From assembly GCF_036321535.1 (NCBI RefSeq), contig NC_087436.1, positions 4,278,001 to 4,342,000 on the forward strand: a stretch of 64,000 bases of DNA. Reading direction: 5' to 3'. The position numbers and the translations under genes were made by a program. Source of the stretch: Camelus dromedarius (lineage: Eukaryota). Under the pieces are notes generated by a model. That model had not been told where the DNA came from, did not search any database, and saw nothing but the letters and a program-made list of their open reading frames with translations. Shown piece by piece: positions 14,172 through 46,244 of this stretch (position 1 is the first letter of the stretch; every line of letters begins with the position of its first letter).

Positions 14172-14639
14172 AGTTACACATAGGTGGTGTTACTAGACAC
14201 AAGATAGAAATCTTAGGCACAGTGTTCTGTCAGAGAAATATTCTTATGCTCAGAGAGTCATGCATCTGCTAAATATTTAATAGATTTGTAAAAAGCTGTT
14301 TTCTTAGGTTTCTTTAAGCTTGTCTATAACCACTGTTCTAAGACAAAATAGAGAATCCCTTTCACTATGCATGTAAAGTCTTCCTTCTGTGTCAGGGACA
14401 CATAAATACATATGGCTGTTGCTACTAGTTATGTGAAAGAAACTTTAAACTTTAGTCAGAGTGTTCCTGCACTCTGGAAAGGAAGTTACACTCAGTAAGT
14501 GAGGCAGGCAGTCAACTGATAAAAGGACGTGTAGAAGTAGTGTTTGCTAGGGAACTTAAGACATTTTTCTGCACCTTGTATTCTAACATTCCATAAATGA
14601 GGAAGCCTGCCCAGATGCATGTAAACCCTTGTTCCCATG

Positions 14640-14700
<61 letters not shown>

Positions 14701-17700
14701 GATAGATAGATAATCACACTTCTTAAACAATCTATAAAAGTAGTTTTAGACACAGTGTTTCTTTCAGTGACAGAAAGTTACACACAATAAGTGAGGCGAG
14801 GATTAAGTAGTGTAACAGACGTGTAGAGTTAGGTTTTCTCAGCTTACTTGGAAGCTGAGTCATATCAAAACCTTTTAACAGTGAATGGATGTAAAGGCCT
14901 TTCATAGTATGTATAAAAAGTCCCATTGAAATGTTGATTATGTATAGATGTTGTCTTGAGCCCCATGATAGAAATGGGAGACAGTGTTCTTTCAGAGCTA
15001 TATGGCTGTACAGAATGAATCATGCACCTGTAAATTAAGAAATCTCTGGACACTCCTTTCCAAGGCTTCTGTAAGCTTTGCTATACATGGTGTTCTAAGA
15101 AGCAGAGAATGAGAGCGTCCTTCTCTCTGCATGAAAAGTCTTGTTTCCACACTAGGTATATATAAAGAGATACAGATGTATAGCTGCTGTAACTAACCAT
15201 ATGAAAGAACATTTAGGCACAAAGTTCTTTCAGGGAGAAGCTGTACCCAGTAAGTGATGCATGTAGTTTTAACAGTGAATGGAGATGAAAGTCTTCCTGT
15301 GTGAACGTAAAACAACAAGATAGACAGAAAACTTAGACACAACGTTCTTTTGGAGAAACACTGTTACACATAGTCATCCCCGCGGTGAATCACTTAACAT
15401 TATTTATAGAATCTGATTTTACAGACATCTCCAAGCTTTGCCATATGCAGTGTTCTTACGGACAATAGGTGTGAGCTCCATCACTCTGCATGCGAGGTCT
15501 GTCTTTCATGCTACATAGACAGGCACACCTGTTGTAACTAACTGTAGGAAAGAAATTTTAGGTGCAGTGTTCTTGTAGTGAATGAATCAAATAACCAGCG
15601 AGTGATACACACAGTCGAGTGAGTGAAGGACCGGTGGCTGTAGGTCTTCTCCTGCTACATAGAGGCTATGCTACATCCAGGTTGTTAAGCAGCCTTGGAT
15701 GACAAAGCCCTTCATCTGCATGTAAAAAACTGTACCTGGATTAGATATGTGGCCTTAGTGGGACTTTACAGAACAAGTCTGGACATGGCGTTCCTTCAGC
15801 AGAGCTAGTGTCAGTGAGTGATGCTGGTAGTGACGTGTTTGGCAGACTTGTCCAACTACTGCTTCTCGGGTTTCCTGGAAGCTGAGTCAGAGCCAGGTTT
15901 TAACGGTGAAGATATGCAAGAGCCTCTCAGGAAAGTCTTGCTTGAATGTACCTTATACACACATGCTGTCACTAGCTACGCAGTAAAAGTACAGGCACAG
16001 TGTCCTTTCAGAGAGACGCTGTTGTATCCAGAGTGTCTCGCATGCAGTGAGTATTTAAACAGATTTATAGAAGCTGTTTTCCTGGGTTTCTTCACACTGC
16101 TATTCTGTGTTCTAACAAAAAATAGGTGAGAGCACCTTCCAACCTGCATCTAAAATCTTACTCCCATATTAGATACAAATAGCTGTCCTTAGTGTCTCCA
16201 TGACACAGACCTTAGGCAGAGTTTTCTTTCAGTGGAAGGAAGTTTGCCCAGTGAGTGAAGCATGAGGTGAGTGAATAAAGGGCCTGTGGCAGCATTTCTT
16301 TCCTTGCTACGCAGGCGCGTCCCGCTGCCCAGGGCTCTAACAGCCCTGACATGAGCAAGCCTTTCCATTGCGTGTAAAGCCGTGCTATCACATTCAGTGT
16401 AAGTACAGAGTTGCTAATAGTCCATGAATGTAGGTTTAGACAGTCTCCTTTTGGTGAAAAAAAGGACAAAAATGTGCAGGCTGACAGCGAGTGGTTCAAC
16501 AGGCCTGTGGGATCACTGATGCCCACGCTGCCTGGGCGCTGGCTCACGCCTAGAACTCTGCCCCTGGGTGGGCGGCAGGGACGGTCTGCGTCCATGTAAA
16601 CTCCTGCTCCCGTGTTCCTTATACTTAGAGGTTCTTACCTCCTGGCTTGCAAAAATCCTAGGCACAGAGTCCTTCCAGAGAACTACTGTTAACTCCAGAG
16701 TCATGAGGTAGTGAATCTTTTAAGATTTAAATGCTATTTTCTCAGGTTTCTTTAAGCTTCCCCGTAGCCAGGGTCCTAAAAGGAAGTAGACGAGGGGCCT
16801 TTCAGCCTGTATGGGGACGCGTGTAGTTTTTCATATTTATACACAGATGTGTGCAAACTAACAAGCTTGTGTATATCTAATAAGGGAACGAGCTTTTACA
16901 CATACATGAGGAAGTTTCTCACTTGGGGGCTGGCTGAGCACAGCGAAGAGGTTTCTCTGTAGCAGGCAGAGCTCTGCTGCTCAAGGTCCTCTGTTCAGTT
17001 GAGCGTGTACATCACTCACTGGGTATAAGCTCCATTCACTGGAAGAGCACGGAGCCTACCATTTCCTTCATAGCGCTGCTAACAGCTGTCTGTCTGTAAC
17101 ACGGAATCAGGACCTTACGTGCAGGGTGAAAGGAGCATTCATCTCTTGCCAGTAAGAAAATGGTTTATACCAAAGCTTGAAGAAGTATCAGAAATAAGCT
17201 TCTGTGAATCTGTTAAATGACTTACTACGTGCATGACTCTCTGTGTATAAAAATGTTTCTCAGAAAGAACAATGTGCCAGTGGTTTCTCTCCTGTGTCTA
17301 GTAACAGAATCTCTCTATATGAAATATGGGAATAAAACATTCAGGCACTTGGAAAGCTTTCACATACCTTCCCTCTTAAAACCAAGGTGTGAATCATCTT
17401 TCAGGTGGCCTTGGAAACTCGTTCTGCGGGTCTGATGCAGCGTTCACTGCCAGCTTCACTCACTGCGGGTACTTCCTGCCACTGAAAAGTCACAAAGTCA
17501 ACACCCTCTTGCAGAGTAATAACAAGCGCAATGCATAACTAATAATGCAACAAGCTGCTACATGCCGGTGAGAGGGATTTGTTGTCCATGAGCTGTTAGA
17601 ACACTGGGTGCAGGGCAGCTTCTAAGTAGCAAGAAAAGCGCTACTTACAGGTTCTTTATTCAACTGACTACACGCACCACCCTCTGGGAATAACTTGCGC

Positions 17701-19988
17701 TCACTGGGAGAAATCTCTCCTAAAATGTCTTTCACACAGCTAGTAAAAACAGCTACAAACGTGTAATATGGAAGCCAGATTCCCCATACAGGCTGAACGG
17801 TTGCCTCCTCTACTTCCGTTCAGGACACTGGCTGTAGGGAAGTAAAGGAACTTGAGAAAACAGCATTTAAATCTGTTAAAAGATTCGCTACCTGATGACT
17901 CTCTGGATTTAACAATAGTTCTCTGGAAGGACTCTGTGCCTAAGATTCCTACAAGCCAGCATGTAGGAGCCTCCAGCTGGACGCTGAGTCATACTGAGAG
18001 TGGTAACAGTGCATGGGTGCTGAAGCCTTTCTGACTGCGTGTCACACGGTTTCCACATTCTCTGTGTGTGCAAGTTCTTAGCAGCTACGTGGAGGGCATC
18101 GTGAACTCAGAGTTCTTTCACAGAAATGCTGTTATGCCCAGAGAGTCGTACATATATTGAATCTCTTAACAGGTTTCTAGAAACTGTTTTCTCAAGTTTC
18201 TTCAAGCTTCACTATACCCAGGAAACATGTGAGATCCTTTCACTCTGTGTAAATTTTGCTTCCACATTAGAGTTTCAGAGCTCTTGTTCCTAGCTATATG
18301 AAAGGAACTTCAGACGCGCGTTCTTTCAGTGAACTGACATTATGCCCGATGAGAGGTGCATGATGCCAACTGCCTAAGGACCTGGATCAGCACTGCCTCT
18401 CCTGCTCCTCAGAAGCTTCCCTGTACCCCATGTCTGAGAGCCCACAGGTGAGAAAGTCTTCCCCTAGTGGAAATTCTTGCCCCCATATTAGGTATATACG
18501 GACTTGGTTAAAACTAAACTAAAGACATTTTAGACATAGTGCTCTTTTAGGAGAAAAAAGGCACCTACGGTGTGAGGCTCGTGGGGAACTGTTGAACAGA
18601 CCTGCCAAAGTGCTGTTCCTCAGGCCACTTGGATGCTGAGTCACATCGAGACGTTTAACACTGAATGGATGAGAAAGACTTTCCAAGTCCTCTCCCCATG
18701 TTCCCAACATACAGATGTTCTTACTGACTACGCGGTAGGAATCTGAAGCTCAGAGTTCTTTCACAGAAACGTTGGTAGATTCAGAGTCATGCATGTAGTA
18801 AAAAATTTAACTATTTTCTCAGGTTTCTTCAAGCTTTGTTATACCCAGTGTTCTGACAGGAAATACAAAGGACATTTTTTCACTTTGCATGCAAAGTCTT
18901 CTGTGTTGGAAGCTGTTGTCACCACCTATAGGAGAGAAATTGTAGACATAATGTTCTTACAATGAAGAAAGTCATGCTCAGTGAGGGATGTATGTAGTCC
19001 AGTGAATACGGGCCCTGTAATCTTTCTCTAATCAGAAGCTTAGTTACAGCTTGTGTTCTAAAGGCCATGGGTGAGAAAGCCTTTTTTCTGCACGTAAAAA
19101 TTTGTTCCTGTATCACACACATATAGACTTACTAGTACTCTATGGAAGAAAGTTTAGACGATTCTGTCAGTCACAAAAAGTTAGACTGTGAATGAAGCTA
19201 GCAGTGCATAGATTAACAGCCCTGGAAGGTTCATTTTCTCTGGCTGCTTGGGTGCTTAGCCATACCTGATGTTTTATCAGTGAATGGATGGGAAAGCCTT
19301 TTCCAGGGCATGTAAAATCCTGTTCCTAGATTTTCAATATTTAGATGTTCTTGCTGGCTACATAATAGAAATCTCAAGCTCAGAGTTTTTTTCACAGAAA
19401 TATTGTTATTTCCAGAGTTTAAAGCATGGACTAAATCATTTAACAGGTGGAAAGAAGCTGTATTCTCAGAATTCTGAAAGGTTCCCTTGTCTACCTCACC
19501 ATGCCCAGTGCCCTTACGGGGAACAGATGAGACCGCCTTCCGCACGGCTTCGAAGCCTTGCTTTCATGGTGAGCAGAGTGCTGCTGTCACCAGCTGGGAC
19601 GCAGGACCTCTTAGGCACAGTGTCTTTCAGGGGAAGCGTTGCACCCAGTGAGTGACGCACACAGCTAACTGAATGGAAGACCTGAGGCAGCAGAGCTCTT
19701 GCTAATGAGACGTTGTTACAACCAATGATTTCACAGCCAATAAATGACAAAGCCAATCCCTCCTCATTTAAAAGAATGTCCCCACATTAGATATATGGAG
19801 ACTTTTGAATAGCACTAGGAAAGAATGTTTAGACACTGTTCTTTCCTTGAAAAAAGTGACATGCAGTGAGTGAAGCTTGTGGTGAGTAGTGCAAGAGACG
19901 TGTAGAACTGCTGATTCCCAGGCTACTTGGATGCTGGATCACAGCCAGTGTTTTAAGAGTGAATGTTTAGCAAATGCTTTCCTAGTGC
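14172..19988. repeat. Diverged tandem satellite, ~220-bp monomer with three alternating types (A-B-C, ~650-670 bp)
   Basis: Anchor AG(G/A)CACAGTGTTCTTTCAG recurs at ~14216, 14456, 14748, 14978, 15216, 15335, 15561, 15781, 15994, 16215, 16438, 16661, 18106, 18312, 18532, 18748, 18944, 19155, 19378, 19614 and 19830. Confidence 0.9.
14641..14711. repeat. (GATA)n microsatellite within the satellite
   Basis: Directly visible. Confidence 0.98.
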
Positions 19989-41259: not shown

Positions 41260-42075
41260 CTGTCTCAGGAACAGCAGGTTGTCTCCAGTTGAGTTCCCCT
41301 AGCAGGCCTTGGAGCGCCACTAAACTGGATGCTCTGGCAAGGGTGAGGGTGGGGCATTTGAACTTTTCGGCAAGCTCCCAGCCCAGGCATTTGAATGGAG
41401 GGTCATGTTGTATGTTTCTTTTTTGGAACTTGGAAGCCCCAGGAATTAAAGGTAGCAATTAGGTCCTGTGGCTTCCCTCATTCTGGCTAGCCAGCAGGGT
41501 ATCACCCATGTAGGCCAGCACAATGCACTGAGGGTGCAGTTCCCGCCAGGGGTCAAGGATGGTTGCCAGGGCCTTTTGGCACCCTTCTGAAGAGAAAGCC
41601 ATGCCCTGGAGAAACACAGTCCATGGGGAGTGTGGGGCTGGACCCTCGCAGTTGGCCTTGGGAACCATAAATGCAAGAGAAGGCCTGTACCCCTTTTTCA
41701 CGGGGACTGTGAAAAAGGCGACCTTGCTGTCTAGTATTGAGACATGTGGGTGGGTCATAGGGGGTCTCCCCAGCCAAGGGATGCCCTCTTGGGACTGGCC
41801 AGGTTGTGGCAAGCAATGTTCCAACCAAGGAGTGTTCCATGGTGAGTCTGAGGGCTCAGTTTGGCCTGCCCCCCATTTTTCTGTGACTAAGTTCTTAATG
41901 GTGGCCAGACACTCCCTACTTAAGGGCCATTGGGGAATTTTTGGTCCTGCCTTGGTGGTGTCCAGGGGCTTAGCAATAGGCTCCAGCCAATGTTGTTTAA
42001 GATGATTCTCAGGCGACCGGGCAGGGTCAGGGGATCACCCTGAGTCAGCTTCAGTGGGTCCCCCACTCGTTTCCC
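41260..42075 (-). pseudogene. pol: ERV reverse transcriptase, disrupted and truncated
   Basis: GPKIPQWPL..SPWNTP; ILDSKVAFFTVP..AFMVP; LQGM; YMGD (degenerate YMDD); PPFKCLGWEL; LQGLLGELNW. Confidence 0.92.
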
Positions 42076-42878
42076 ACCTCCAGGATTTTGATCTTATTGC
42101 CCCATTTTGCTAGGACATCCCGGCCGATGATGACTTGGAGCAAGTCTGGGACAATTATGGGGTCCTATGTCTCTTCCTATATTTGATAGTCTGGGAGGGC
42201 CACGGTGACAGGCACTCAAAATTTTTGTAGTTGTCCCATGAGGCCCCCAATTCCCCACACTGCCCCCTCTACTGGATCCAGTGGCTTGCCAGTACCATGA
42301 GCCAATTCCTTCCCGACCACCGACCTGTCGGCGCCTGTATTGAGGTGGCCTCAGACTTCCTGGCCTGCAACTCATACTCTGATTACAGGTCGACGATCTA
42401 GGTCCAGGACCGGGAATGTCTGGGCTTGACCCCATCAGATGGGGGAAGTGCCAAGTACTGCGAGTTGGGCAGTGATCCCTGGTGCGCATGTCCCAGTCCA
42501 GATTATTGTAATTTTTTTATTGGAGAATCACCTCAGTCCAAATCCCTGGGAGTAGCCAATTGTTTGCTGTGTCAAAATTATATCATTTTGGCCACCTGAC
42601 ATCAACACAGCCAATAAGCTCTGGTGGGATATTCAGACTGGCCCCCAGGGGGACTGGGGTGACCACCCCAGCTCCTGGCAGTCTCTGATCATGGCTGTGA
42701 AGAGATCAAAGCAGTCGGCACCATCCATAATGGGCCACAGGACTTGGGCGCCAGGTTGCAGGGCTTGACATTTGAGGGCTATGGCAGGGGTGTCCCCATG
42801 GCAGATGACGACTTCTCCCTCTCAGTCATCCGGGGGAGGGCCACGGGGACTTACTGGCCCTCCCGCTATCCGTTTTTT
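42051..42878 (-). pseudogene. pro: ERV pro with an N-terminal dUTPase-like domain, disrupted
   Basis: GADCFDLFTA..VTPVPLGASLNIPPELIG (dUTPase-like); HLNTGADRSVV (DTGAD with D to N); IIGRDVL. Confidence 0.85.
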
Positions 42879-44215
42879 GCCGGCTTCTCGGGGCACAAGG
42901 CTGCCCAGTGACCAGGTTTTTGGCAGATGGGGCAGGGTGTTTTTGGCCTGACAGTGGGGTCAGGCATAGGTTTTCTGCCTGTGCCTTGGTGCCTACAAAG
43001 GCATTCACTTTTCCAGTGCCCATCTTGCCCATAATAAAAACAAGGCCTTTTTGGTTGAGGGCCTCTGGGCCCAGGACACCTTGCCTGGCCACTGTGGCTG
43101 TTCGGGCCTCCGCGAGGGCCACAGCCTCGGGATGGATCTCATTTGCTACCCAAATTTTGTCAGTTAGGCTCCCTTTTTTTTGCCCTCTAGCAGTCAAGGT
43201 GTTGTGAATGGGGTTGATGGCGTTGGTAACTGAGAGCTCCTCTATGAGAATCTCTTGGGTCCCTGAGTTGAAGGTGACCTGGTCCGCCGCCTTTTGCAGC
43301 CTATCCAGGAAGGTTGAATACTCCTCCATGGGGCCTCACAGGGCCTTGGCCAGAGCCTCCCGGAGACCCGCCTGGGGCCAGCGCTCCATGGCCTCAATAA
43401 CCCGGTCCTGATAACATCGGCGAAGAGCTGCACTGGGGAGGGAGTGCACACGCTGGTCATTTCCCCCAACTGCGCTGCCTTTCATGGTTGAGTGTTGGCC
43501 GGACTAGCAACCCATTGCTCGATTCGCTCCTGGATCAGACTGGTGGCCATCGCCATTTGCACCGGTGTGAGAACTCCCCTGAGCAGGTGCCTTAGATCCA
43601 GGCCGGTGGGATTGGTGGCATCTATGATGCCCCGGAGGACTTGTACACACCCTGGGCTGCCTGGACCATATTCCTTGGTTTCCCTCAGGTCTTTATAGGC
43701 CTGGGTATTCCAAGGTACCCGCTGTGGGAGGCCTTGGGCATCTTGGATGACTGGAAAGGCCTGAGTGGCAAGGACCTTCCAGAAGGGACTGGGGTTATTA
43801 TTCCAAATATCCCCATCCCATTCCTCTGGATCTATGGCTCTTGGGGGGGGGCTCCCTGGGTTCCCTCCTTTGGCGTGGAGCTGGGAGGTCCAGCTTCCCA
43901 GGTTCTCTCGCAGCCTCTAGCCGGCTCCAGGTTGGCTCTGGGGTTTGTCTCCTCCCACATGGTCTTGGCCAGAGCCAGTAGTGGGAGATCTTTACGCCTT
44001 CCCATTATTATTTGGGTTGTTCTATGGCAGTCGGAGGGTTCCAGGACACCCTCACTGGGGAAACACTCCTTGTATTTAATGTTTTCATCCAGGACTCAGC
44101 TGTTCCCTTTCCATAATTCCCATATCCCAAGCGGTCCTTGTTGGCTATCACGTTTTCCAGCAAACCCCATGTCGTGCGTGCCCCCCTAGATCGGGATGTG
44201 GACTGAGCTTTCCCG
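42866..44215 (-). pseudogene. gag: ERV gag (MA-CA-NC), disrupted
   Basis: GKAQS N-terminal-like motif; FPSEGVLEP; CA start FPVIQD..YGPGSP; MHR GPMEEYSTFLDRL; knuckles CFYYGQDGHWKSEC and CPICQKPGHWAALC. Confidence 0.9.
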
Positions 44216-44709
44216 AGGGTGAGCTGAAGAAAGTGCCTCAGTTCCTCAGGCTGGTCCGGAGGGCAGTGCAGGGCCTGTGGATGGGGCTCAGGCCTTAGAC
44301 GCCGGGTGGGCTGCCAGGGAGGCTGAATGACGGGCTGGGGCTGTTGTGGGGAGCAGGATGGCTTAGTGTTTTCCCCACAGCACCGGTAACCGCACAGCCG
44401 CCGTTTCCCAGGCAGCAAACTAAGAGAATGGTTGTAACAGGGCTACTGGCCGCCCGGAAGTCACATTTCCCATTTTTAGGGTCGATTTCAGTTGCGTTGG
44501 TTGCATTGTTGTTTGTGCAACCCCGTAATTTGGTCAAATTGTAACTGGCTAGTGTCCGGACACCAAGGGCGTCAGGACTAACTTGGCGCCACCACAGGCA
44601 AGCCCAGTGGGCCAGGCCAGAGTTATCAGAAAAAGGCAAAGGGAAGGGAAGAAACGGGCCATTCTCATAAGGAAAGAAGCCACAAGATCGCGAGATGCCG
44701 GAAAGATGC

Positions 44710-44727
44710 TCCTCACGTGGGGCACCA
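44710..44727 (-). promoter_or_regulatory. Primer-binding site, best match elongator tRNA-Met
   Basis: TGGTGCCCCACGTGAGGA two nt after the LTR end; 16/18 to recalled TGGTGCCCCGTGTGAGGA versus 14/18 to tRNA-Lys(CTT). Confidence 0.75.
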
Positions 44728-44729
44728 CT

Positions 44730-45297
44730 TGTCAGGCTCAGGTGTCTCTGCTGGGCCGAGGGTGATCAAGCCTTTCCCGGGTTCTGAGCATCTCCAGCCC
44801 GACAAACCTGGGGACCCTAAAAAATCTGTCAGCTATCTTTTTTTCTGACGACCACCATGCGTGGGTTCCCTGGACTTTGCATCCCCAGTTGCTTGTGTGC
44901 GGAGTGAAGAAAGAGCCGAGAGCCAAGTGTTCAGGCGCAAGGCAGACGGGTTCAGGACGGGAGGGGACCGGGCCCGCGCTTCTACCAGCCTATCCGAGGC
45001 CAGGAGTGCACTGGACCCAGATCGCCCCCCAACTCCTGACAACCTCGGCATTTTGTTGAATTATCAACCAGTCAAGCAAAAGGGCTAGGGTGGGGGTCGC
45101 AGGCATGGGGGGAGACGGGTGGTGGTTAGTTTTGATTGGTGACCTTTAACGCATTGGGGGGCCTTTAGCGCTTAGAAGGTGTGGGGCCACTGTCCATTTG
45201 CTCGTCTGCCTGGCCCACGGTCACTGTGCTACTGCGCTCGGCCAAGTGTTGTCTTTTGCAAGCCAGCAGCTGCCGTTCTTGCTGGCCTGATCCTACA
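44730..45297 (-). mobile_element. 5' LTR of the class II ERV (~568 bp)
   Basis: TGTAGG...CCTGACA termini; two CCAAT boxes near 45134 and 45152; directly followed by the PBS. Confidence 0.8.
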
Positions 45298-46244
45298 GTG
45301 ATGACTTACTTTTTGTTTCCCTTGTGATTTTTGTTTTGTTTCAGAGCCAGCTCGCCTGCTTAAGCCTTACACATCACACCTGAGTGATCACTTGACCACC
45401 CCCCGAGTGACCAGTTGACCCCACTGTGTGACCCAGTCATCAGTTTGGCTCTTCAGTTGGCTCAGAGCTCAGGACGTTCTCAACTGATGTGGTTGCTCTG
45501 CCAAGGGTTCTTCCCTGCAACTGACAGACCCTGGATGAGCAGTTAACGTGCATTCCCTGGGGAGGTGGCCGTCTGGGCTGCTGTTTGCGTGGCTTAGTTA
45601 ATTAAGTCTGTGACACTCAGCGTCTCACTAACTTGTGATCTGATCACCTGATCGAGTAGCCTGGACAAAGGCTGGTCAGAAAATGGGCAGGAGTTCAAGT
45701 CTCTCTTCACCAAAACCGAGGCTCTATTCTATAAACTCCTCATCCTTCTCTAGACCGGGGAGCGACAGGGACAGAGAACCATGGCCTGTGATAGGGTGCC
45801 CTCCATGACCTCAGCCGGAAGACCCCACCCCGGGACTCTGGGGATCAACAGACAGACTCTCCCACTGACCTCATGTAACTGTCCCTTCTCACCACGCTCC
45901 CAGGCAACACTCAAGCTGACAGTGGCCCTGTCTTCATCAACCCATGGAAATCCTGCCTGGGAATTCCAGTCTCTTCCCTTTTAAAAAACTTCTGCATTTA
46001 GGCCTCTCCTATTTGCTTTCAGGTTTGCACACGTACATTCAGAAGAGCTGAGCTGTGAGTCCCCTTTCCTGTACCGTCTTTGCGAGGGTGGCATCTCCTG
46101 CTTCAGTGAAAGCGGTGTGGTGTGTTTGCTGTGCCTGCTCTCTGGAGGAGTGTGTATAAACCTGACGTTAGGAAATAGTACACTTTTCTAAATTTAGGAA
46201 AATATTTGAAGCAGCTGGCTTGACAGAAGATTCAAAAATATACA

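Follow-up and report, generated by a model that had tools for sequence, protein, structure and literature searches.

On balance, we favour the reading that the stretch between the primer binding site (PBS) and the matrix (MA) domain of the provirus described here is the decayed 5' part of the gag gene of an old, low-copy class II endogenous retrovirus (ERV), in which it would have served as a membrane-targeting module. That this extension was coding and fused to Gag appears likely. An open frame, an ATG shared by the two copies compared, the absence of a start at MA and a pattern of hydropathy and sequons are directly seen.

In the mechanism that we propose, translation would start at the ATG at 44662 and run for about 150 codons into MA, which lacks a start codon and a myristoylation start of its own. 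The N-terminal hydrophobic segment, as a signal peptide or a signal-anchor, would engage the ER. A loop of about 45 residues with three sequons and Cys is predicted to face the ER lumen and to be glycosylated, and a second hydrophobic segment may be a stop-transfer anchor. On the cytosolic side there would remain a Pro/Ser-rich linker of about 50 residues, followed by MA-CA-NC. A protein anchor, and not myristate, would thus hold Gag at ER or secretory membranes. That the extension was translated, its topology, its glycosylation and its effect on assembly are predicted here from the sequences of the two copies.

Genomic setting, copies and classification

The window, by which we mean the whole stretch of 64,000 nucleotides that was analysed, is mammalian DNA with L1 and tRNA-type SINE copies. 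A decayed provirus lies on its minus strand from about 45373 to about 40760, where it is truncated past the reverse transcriptase (RT). The order is 5' LTR, PBS, a "leader" of about 500 nt and MA-CA-NC-(pro)-RT. All genes of the provirus are broken, the longest open frame having 191 codons, and no 3' LTR was found within the window. A second copy of the element lies on contig C26 of the same genome. The following features frame the leader.

44730..45373, minus strand: 5' LTR (TGTAAGG...CCTGACA), ends set by aligning seven other LTR copies of the genome
44710..44727, minus strand: PBS, 2 nt past the LTR end, read directly and aligned with the second copy
43927..44214, minus strand: MA domain, beginning with Gly 44214-44212, no ATG in either copy; weak Gag_p10 match
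42829..43916, minus strand: CA and NC (Pfam Gag_p24 8.1e-09, Gag_p24_C 2.9e-06, zf-CCHC 7e-06)
43916-43485 and from 43335, minus strand: CA-NTD and CA-CTD, respectively (Pfam)
43138-42869, minus strand: two NC zinc knuckles, the first degenerate, one intact by Pfam zf-CCHC
41462..42034, minus strand: RT fragment (Pfam RVT_1 9.3e-11; ORF map)

The 5' LTR features an AATAAA-type signal near 45058, which is mutated in the window, and a TTTAAA/CCAAT region near 45150-45135. The putative tRNA assignment of the PBS is Lys1,2-like. The MA domain of the window carries a further private frame break at 44074/44073. When the unbroken MA of the second copy was compared with Pfam Gag_p10, the match had an E value of 0.004 and 17.5 bits, which is under the cutoff of 23.9. 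Residues 53-81 of this MA align with profile positions 37-65, so that the profile would begin near the Gly.

Searching the window's genome (2.3 Gb) with the leader yielded one other locus, the copy on C26, with an identity of about 81%. The CA query returned the same two loci (two matches of seven candidates). With the LTR as query 13 places were found, namely the window LTR, the two LTRs of the second copy and 10 others, at none of which internal sequence was present within 1.5 kb. In the window's genome, the family comprises two proviruses and about 10 solo LTRs.

The K2P distance within the LTR pair of the second copy is 0.097, and the window LTR differs from these two LTRs by 0.20. The values suggest that much of the divergence between the two copies arose after integration. 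The elements appear to be old. A generic rate is about 2.2e-9 per site per year; at this rate the figure for the LTR pair corresponds to roughly 20 million years, and the pair may not date a single integration because a target duplication was looked for at the second copy and none was found. Flanking repeats of 6 bp were present at four of the five solo LTRs examined, two of them perfect and two with one mismatch, and the fifth was ambiguous.

A target duplication of 6 bp is linked to class II. Based on these duplications and on the weak Gag_p10 match, the element was filed as a class II (beta-like, ERVK-type) endogenous retrovirus. The nearest solved structures of CA are those of HTLV-1 and BLV (E 6.5e-06 to 0.0065), and the nearest solved structure of the RT fragment is HIV-2 RT. 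No other RT in the window's genome is more than 38% identical to this one. The second copy retains a weak IN_DBD_C remnant about 750 nt before its 3' LTR (E 0.0069, under the cutoff). An env domain was found in neither copy, the window copy being truncated after RT and the second copy internally deleted.

Reading frames between the PBS and MA

The features of the leader itself are given below, with f0, f1 and f2 denoting the three frames of the minus strand; the slash in the donor motif marks the cut.

44660..44662, minus strand: proposed Gag start ATG, the sole ATG common to both copies from the LTR end to 44123
44589..44662, minus strand: hydrophobic segment 1, 22-25 residues, read in f0 to 44616 and then in f2 in the window, in one frame in the second copy
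44614..44615, minus strand: frame break 1 of the window, one base fewer than in the second copy
44577..44585, minus strand: candidate major splice donor, CAA/GTTAGT in the window and CAG/GTTAGT in the second copy (consensus match)
44445..44588, minus strand: putative luminal loop of about 45 residues with three N-x-S/T sequons and two Cys (translation, sequon scan)
44370..44444, minus strand: hydrophobic segment 2, in f2 in the window; private frame break of the second copy at column 44442
44215..44369, minus strand: Pro/Ser-rich linker to MA, no sequon; holds frame break 2 of the window and a private stop of the second copy

A first-pass annotation of the window had described a pre-gag ORF that opens with an ATG just past the PBS, stops at 44549 and is continued through two further frames into Gag. 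All of its peptide strings were found on the minus strand in the frames that it had named. Frame f0 encodes M-R-M-A-R-F-F...L-A-C-G...S-G-H from the ATG at 44668, 41 nt past the PBS, to the TAG at 44551-44549. Frame f2 is open from 44765 to 44298 (156 codons) and encodes YNLTKLRGCTNNNATNATEIDPKNGKCDF, then PVTTILLVCCL, with sequons at 44540-44532, 44507-44499 and 44498-44490 and a stop at 44297-44295. Frame f1, which is open from 44442 to 44011 (144 codons), encodes KRRLCGYRCCG, a Pro/Gln-rich stretch and LGKAQS.

The window was aligned with the second copy, and openness was judged column by column in the alignment itself and not in a consensus. The two copies share ancestry and are not independent, and we infer the polarity of the indels. 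From the ATG at 44662 to the Gly of MA, four indels were observed. The window has one base fewer after 44615 (44615/44614), in a short T run, and one base fewer after 44307 (44307/44306), in a C run. The second copy lacks one base at the column of window 44442 and has three bases more after 44327. All three 1-nt indels sit in short homopolymers, and each frame break is private to one copy. Where the second copy is broken (at column 44442 and by a stop at column 44226-44224), the window reads through.

That two frameshifts must be assumed for the window agrees with the alignment, in which the second copy reads through both 44615/44614 and 44307/44306. The position of the second shift had been put near 44440, from f2 to f1; it lies instead at 44307/44306, and no assignment of the indels keeps a path with a shift near 44440 open. 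The supported path follows f2 to 44307 and then f1, and this join is unbroken in the second copy. The stretches 'WPTGLACG' and 'KRRLCGYRCCG...PQQPQP' of the annotation are off this path. The Cys/Gln-rich stretch of f1 at 44442-44307 is likewise off the supported path.

In the column frame that contains both the ATG at 44662 and the Gly at 44214, the two copies have no stop in common between 44819 and 43459. This span amounts to about 453 codons, of which about 201 lie ahead of MA, and it covers the extension, MA and the CA N-terminal domain. Its only stops are private ones, at 44768 and 43834 in the window and at 44226 in the second copy. Between 44760 and 44215 alone, shared stops number 8 in one of the other two column frames and 5 in the other. 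An ORF from just after the PBS into Gag, as had been claimed, is borne out to the extent that this frame is without shared stops across both copies. Other proviral copies had been named as the means to check for one ORF in frame with gag, and the two-copy alignment provides one such frame. Inside the LTR, no frame stays open in both copies for more than 76 codons.

The three 1-nt indels permit 8 distinct assignments. Only the one in which every gap is a loss links the ATG to the gag frame, and over about 151 codons this path has no stop in the window and one in the second copy. Under each of the other seven assignments, either the ATG is not in the gag frame or there are 2-8 stops, which are mostly shared. 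At most one stop was reached in 241 of 20000 column shuffles (p about 0.012). Ahead of the ATG, about 35-50 further codons of this frame are open as well, back across the PBS and into U5. This upstream openness must be due to chance, so chance openness does occur here.

Other measures of coding were less informative. By hand sums from the two copies, dN/dS came to about 0.81 along the extension path, against about 0.74 in bona fide gag; both values are near neutral and do not discriminate. With codon-usage log-odds derived from the provirus itself, the proposed frame came out ahead in two of three segments, but the leave-one-out control was right in only three of eight cases and the result was set aside. 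Conservation in this part of the alignment is highest in the block 44614-44443 (87%). The predicted RNA fold of 44640-44440 was not exceptional (z -1.58), and Rfam gave no match over threshold, the sub-threshold chance hits being located in the LTR only. A 10-nt direct repeat is present at 44765-44756 and 44222-44213. It was rejected as a capture signature, since chance alone would give about 0.2 such repeats and the second copy does not preserve it at the MA site.

Start codon

The ATG at 44662 has a purine at -3 and a G at +4 in both copies and is located 47 nt past the PBS. The ATG at 44668, which had been taken as the start, turned out to be private to the window, and the ATG common to both copies is the one at 44662. 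Three ATGs of the window in U5 are private as well. The other copies have ACG at these places, and the ATGs private to the window look like products of CpG decay.

No Met stands ahead of the MA Gly codon in f1, as the first-pass annotation had noted. The preceding codon is CTC in the window and GCG in the second copy, which is neither an ATG nor a shared near-cognate codon. An ancestral ATG at this position would need two changes per copy, and the next in-frame ATG that both copies have lies 45 codons into MA. A Met-Gly myristoylation start at MA is absent in both copies. A retrovirus must translate Gag, and neither copy offers an ATG at the MA start; the most likely start of Gag is therefore 44662, which gives it about 150 extra residues.

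Membrane-type features of the extension

Hydropathy and sequons were analysed in natural, unaltered pieces only. Segment 1, approximately the first 25 residues, reached a 19-residue Kyte-Doolittle mean of up to 1.66 in the window and 1.76 in the second copy. The loop contains the sequons NLT, NAT and NAT in the window and NLT, NYS and NAT in the second copy. In both copies, sequons were found only between the two hydrophobic segments. Segment 2 is borderline with means of 1.76 (window) and 1.51 (second copy), and it is interrupted by Arg-Glu in the second copy.

The combination of a hydrophobic segment with at least three sequons was compared to stop-free nucleotide shuffles of two natural pieces, the first 74 codons of the ORF of the second copy and 106 codons of frame f2 of the window. 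It occurred in 0 of 5000 shuffles of either piece, a result to be read with the test having been defined post hoc and the two copies being related. Taken singly, a 19-residue mean of at least 1.6 was reached in 379 (second copy) and 115 (window) of 5000 shuffles, and at least three sequons were present in 8 and 52, respectively.

The annotation had suggested a membrane-anchored Gag isoform of type I topology or, as its other option, a decayed accessory glycoprotein. Its general outline stands with respect to the open frame, the hydropathy and the sequons, but not in the details of its frame path. Segment 1 could be a signal-anchor and not a cleaved signal peptide because, at 22-25 residues, it is long. 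A hairpin with an uncleaved signal-anchor is as likely as the type I form.

No homologues of the extension were found by HMMER when the 209-residue read-through of the second copy (extension and MA) was searched against 1.84 billion representatives. The single match was a 103-residue protein with 99% identity to the MA of the second copy, which is apparently the C26-type locus itself. Word-index protein searches found no relative of the extension and, for the RT fragment, none among longer proteins. A protein search of the window's genome with the extension yielded just the two copies, plus three matches at E 0.34-0.88. Pfam gave no match on pieces of the extension, and neither flanking direct repeats nor a host-gene source for it were found. 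The AlphaFold2 model of the read-through (with X at its stop) was unusable, with a mean pLDDT of 47.7 and a pTM of 0.19.

Candidate splice donor and RNA libraries

The consensus of splice donors is MAG/GTRAGT. The candidate donor matches it at 7 of 9 positions in the window and at 8 of 9 in the second copy and lies inside the block of 87% conservation. Its cut at 44583/44582 is in phase 0, directly after the last codon of hydrophobic segment 1. The location of a candidate donor within an ORF is unusual.

Three runs of RNA libraries from three studies (X15, X16 and X19) each gave one contig over 43000-45400, and all three contigs are unspliced. They differ from the window by 27-29 letters in 2401 (about 1.2%) and by two indels each, both in gag, at word depths of 24-83; contigs of this kind do not prove transcription. 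No indel relative to the window was found in the extension, including at 44614/44615. Because the RNA contigs show the same state, the frame breaks of the window are real and common to a form that differs by about 1.2%. A splice joint at the candidate donor was not found in these contigs, from which rare spliced forms could escape.

Alternative explanations

The leader might instead have been an ordinary, non-coding packaging region that is open by chance, with both copies derived from a defective master in which the gag ATG was already gone. The hydrophobic and sequon pattern would then be a product of C-rich, T-tract and AAC-rich sequence. We regard this as rather unlikely. It can draw on the 35-50 open codons upstream of the ATG, where coding is impossible, on the 76-codon shared-open frame inside the LTR, on dN/dS values about neutral and on the lack of an extension homologue in the searches above. 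The 87% conservation of 44614-44443 is also what a cis-acting RNA element might show, although neither the RNA fold (z -1.58) nor Rfam points to such an element. A frame with 0 shared stops, compared to 5-8 in the others, is harder to reconcile with a non-coding leader, and so are the shuffle value (p about 0.012) and the membrane pattern that none of 5000 shuffles reproduced. Moreover, the only shared ATG falls exactly in this frame and has a good context.

Three further readings retain some coding function. As the second copy reads now, the leader could have encoded a stand-alone membrane glycoprotein of about 99 residues with a hydrophobic N-terminus, three sequons and a hydrophobic tail, unfused to a Gag that started by other means. 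The intact ORF of 99 codons in the second copy and its stop at column 44365, which is common to both copies in that frame, are in line with this, and it requires about as many lesions as the fusion. We nevertheless consider it improbable, given that Gag would then have no start codon in either copy and that the 76 shared-open gag-frame codons at 44442-44214 would be unexplained; the window also has a private stop at 44422 in that frame. A second, glyco-Gag-like isoform beside a cytosolic Gag with a non-AUG or lost initiation codon has its precedent in MLV, where an 88-residue in-frame upstream extension directs Gag into the ER (PMC3423011). The length of the leader is similar. For the element studied here such an isoform would be very improbable, since no ATG stands at the MA start of either copy and no near-cognate codon is shared there, the start codon of the extension is AUG and not CUG, and the virus, with its two zinc knuckles, its Gag_p10-like MA and target duplications of 6 bp, is not a gammaretrovirus. 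Finally, the leader exon might have supplied a signal peptide to spliced mRNAs, possibly that of Env, which would be compatible with the fused extension or with an otherwise non-coding leader. The donor-like motif (8/9 in the second copy, 7/9 in the window) in the best conserved block fits this role. However, the donor is a consensus match only, neither copy has an env to join and the RNA contigs contain no joint at it, and we give this reading very little credence.

Comparison with known systems

In literature searches on leader-encoded Gag extensions, only the IAP and glyco-Gag cases were found. Arrangements of this kind are rare, the mouse IAP elements being the best-known example. By function, the ER-targeted Gag of IAP appears to be the closest to the fused extension that we favour. 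Fehrmann et al. in 2003 reportedly described an ER-type signal in IAP Gag in place of the plasma-membrane start of MA. For mouse IAPEz, a preprint places an ER signal peptide ahead of Gag and in the same frame (bioRxiv 10.1101/2022.06.22.497016). The likeness consists in a class II ERV with extra coding sequence between the PBS and MA in frame with Gag, and in a hydrophobic ER-type signal, here predicted from hydropathy, that replaces the myristoyl start of MA. The extension described here differs in being longer (about 150 residues) and in having a second hydrophobic segment and three sequons. No sequence relation to IAP came up in the general searches. A host origin, as proposed for the IAP signal, found no counterpart in the window's genome, where no relative of the extension was detected beyond the two copies. 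IAP copies number in the thousands, whereas two proviruses and about 10 solo LTRs give no sign of an IAP-like success.

If our reading is true, an added N-terminal signal has redirected Gag to internal membranes more than once. The origin would be independent, in another host lineage, and the architecture would be a different one, combining two hydrophobic segments and a glycosylated loop with the lack of a myristoylation start. ER retargeting made the ancestor of IAP a very successful intracellular retrotransposon, and the element would provide a second natural case on the question of whether an ER-targeted Gag suffices for genomic amplification. It was apparently not sufficient here, because only two proviruses and about 10 solo LTRs exist. 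The two copies also illustrate that the 'leaders' of fossil proviruses can hide coding sequence which is visible only by comparing private lesions between copies.

The glyco-Gag of MLV (gPr80gag) is described as starting at a CUG beside the normal AUG Gag, with 88 unique residues that are cytosolic in a type II topology; its leader-encoded in-frame extension sends a form of Gag to the ER, where it is glycosylated (PMC3423011). Such an in-frame extension encoded in the leader is the common feature. In contrast, the element described here is a class II virus with an AUG start and no second start, its sequons are located in the extension between the hydrophobic segments, and its Gag is predicted to be cytosolic. 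The defining features of the MLV type, a non-AUG start beside an AUG Gag and a gammaretroviral genome, were not found.

In a doubtful extension of the favoured reading, to which we attach some plausibility, the membrane-anchored polyprotein would have been the only Gag of the lineage, and the same leader exon, 5' of the donor, would have supplied the signal peptide of Env. We know of no retrovirus for which one signal peptide serving two structural genes has been described. In the avian leukosis/sarcoma virus the gag AUG is 5' of the major splice donor and the first 6 gag codons are shared with the spliced mRNAs, and in avian leukosis viruses the first gag codons contribute to the signal peptide of Env. 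Here, in contrast, about 27 codons, which correspond to the whole hydrophobic segment, would be shared if the candidate donor were used.

RNA-library contigs across the leader region

The LTR, leader and gag region of the provirus (window 43000–45400) is spanned without a break by contigs from three RNA libraries, each from a different study, at a word depth of 24–83. These contigs differ from the window at about 1.2% of positions; compared to the window, the RNA-contig form has four additional letters behind 44008 and lacks two at 43843.

Short elements in the LTR and leader

Three further features were observed in this part of the provirus:

44577–44585, minus strand: donor-like motif, immediately 3' of the last codon of the first hydrophobic segment of the proposed Gag extension
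45053–44836, minus strand: LTR-internal ORF, with its ATG overlapping the conserved AATAAA motif
44756–44765 and 44213–44222: exact 10-nt direct repeat, near the U5 end and exactly at the position of the MA start codon

The donor-like motif lies within the block 44614–44443, which is the most conserved (87% identity) in this part of the alignment between the window and the second leader-bearing copy, on contig C26. The LTR-internal ATG is kept in all of the eight aligned LTRs. Its frame of 72–77 codons is uninterrupted in both copies and terminated by a common stop (44835); it may be a chance frame or, if transcription starts 5' of its ATG, an upstream ORF. About 0.2 repeats like the 10-nt pair are expected by chance, and the copy at the MA site is not preserved in C26.

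The second provirus

Contig C26, 22063101–22067547: second provirus (L008/L009/L017), both LTRs present, K2P 0.097

A search for a 6-bp target duplication around this provirus yielded no matching pair. An internal deletion was also observed. A weak C-terminal remnant of integrase (E 0.0069) was found about 750 nt upstream of the 3' LTR, and nothing recognisable as env was detected within the 750 nt between the two. This copy may be a recombinant, or it may be env-less.

Affinities and other repeats

No other RT in the same genome exceeds 38% identity to the RT of the window provirus, the lineage of which looks isolated.

Among solved structures, those closest to the capsid (43485–43916, minus strand) are deltaretroviral Gag/CA (HTLV-1, BLV) and not betaretroviral CA; HIV-2 RT is closest to the RT fragment (41462–42034, minus strand).

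Elsewhere in the window, several families of direct repeats were found:

14186–19487: direct-repeat families D10, D15 and D20, repeats of 60–100 nt at a spacing of 0.4–2.4 kb

This arrangement suggests a tandemly duplicated unit with no relation to the provirus.
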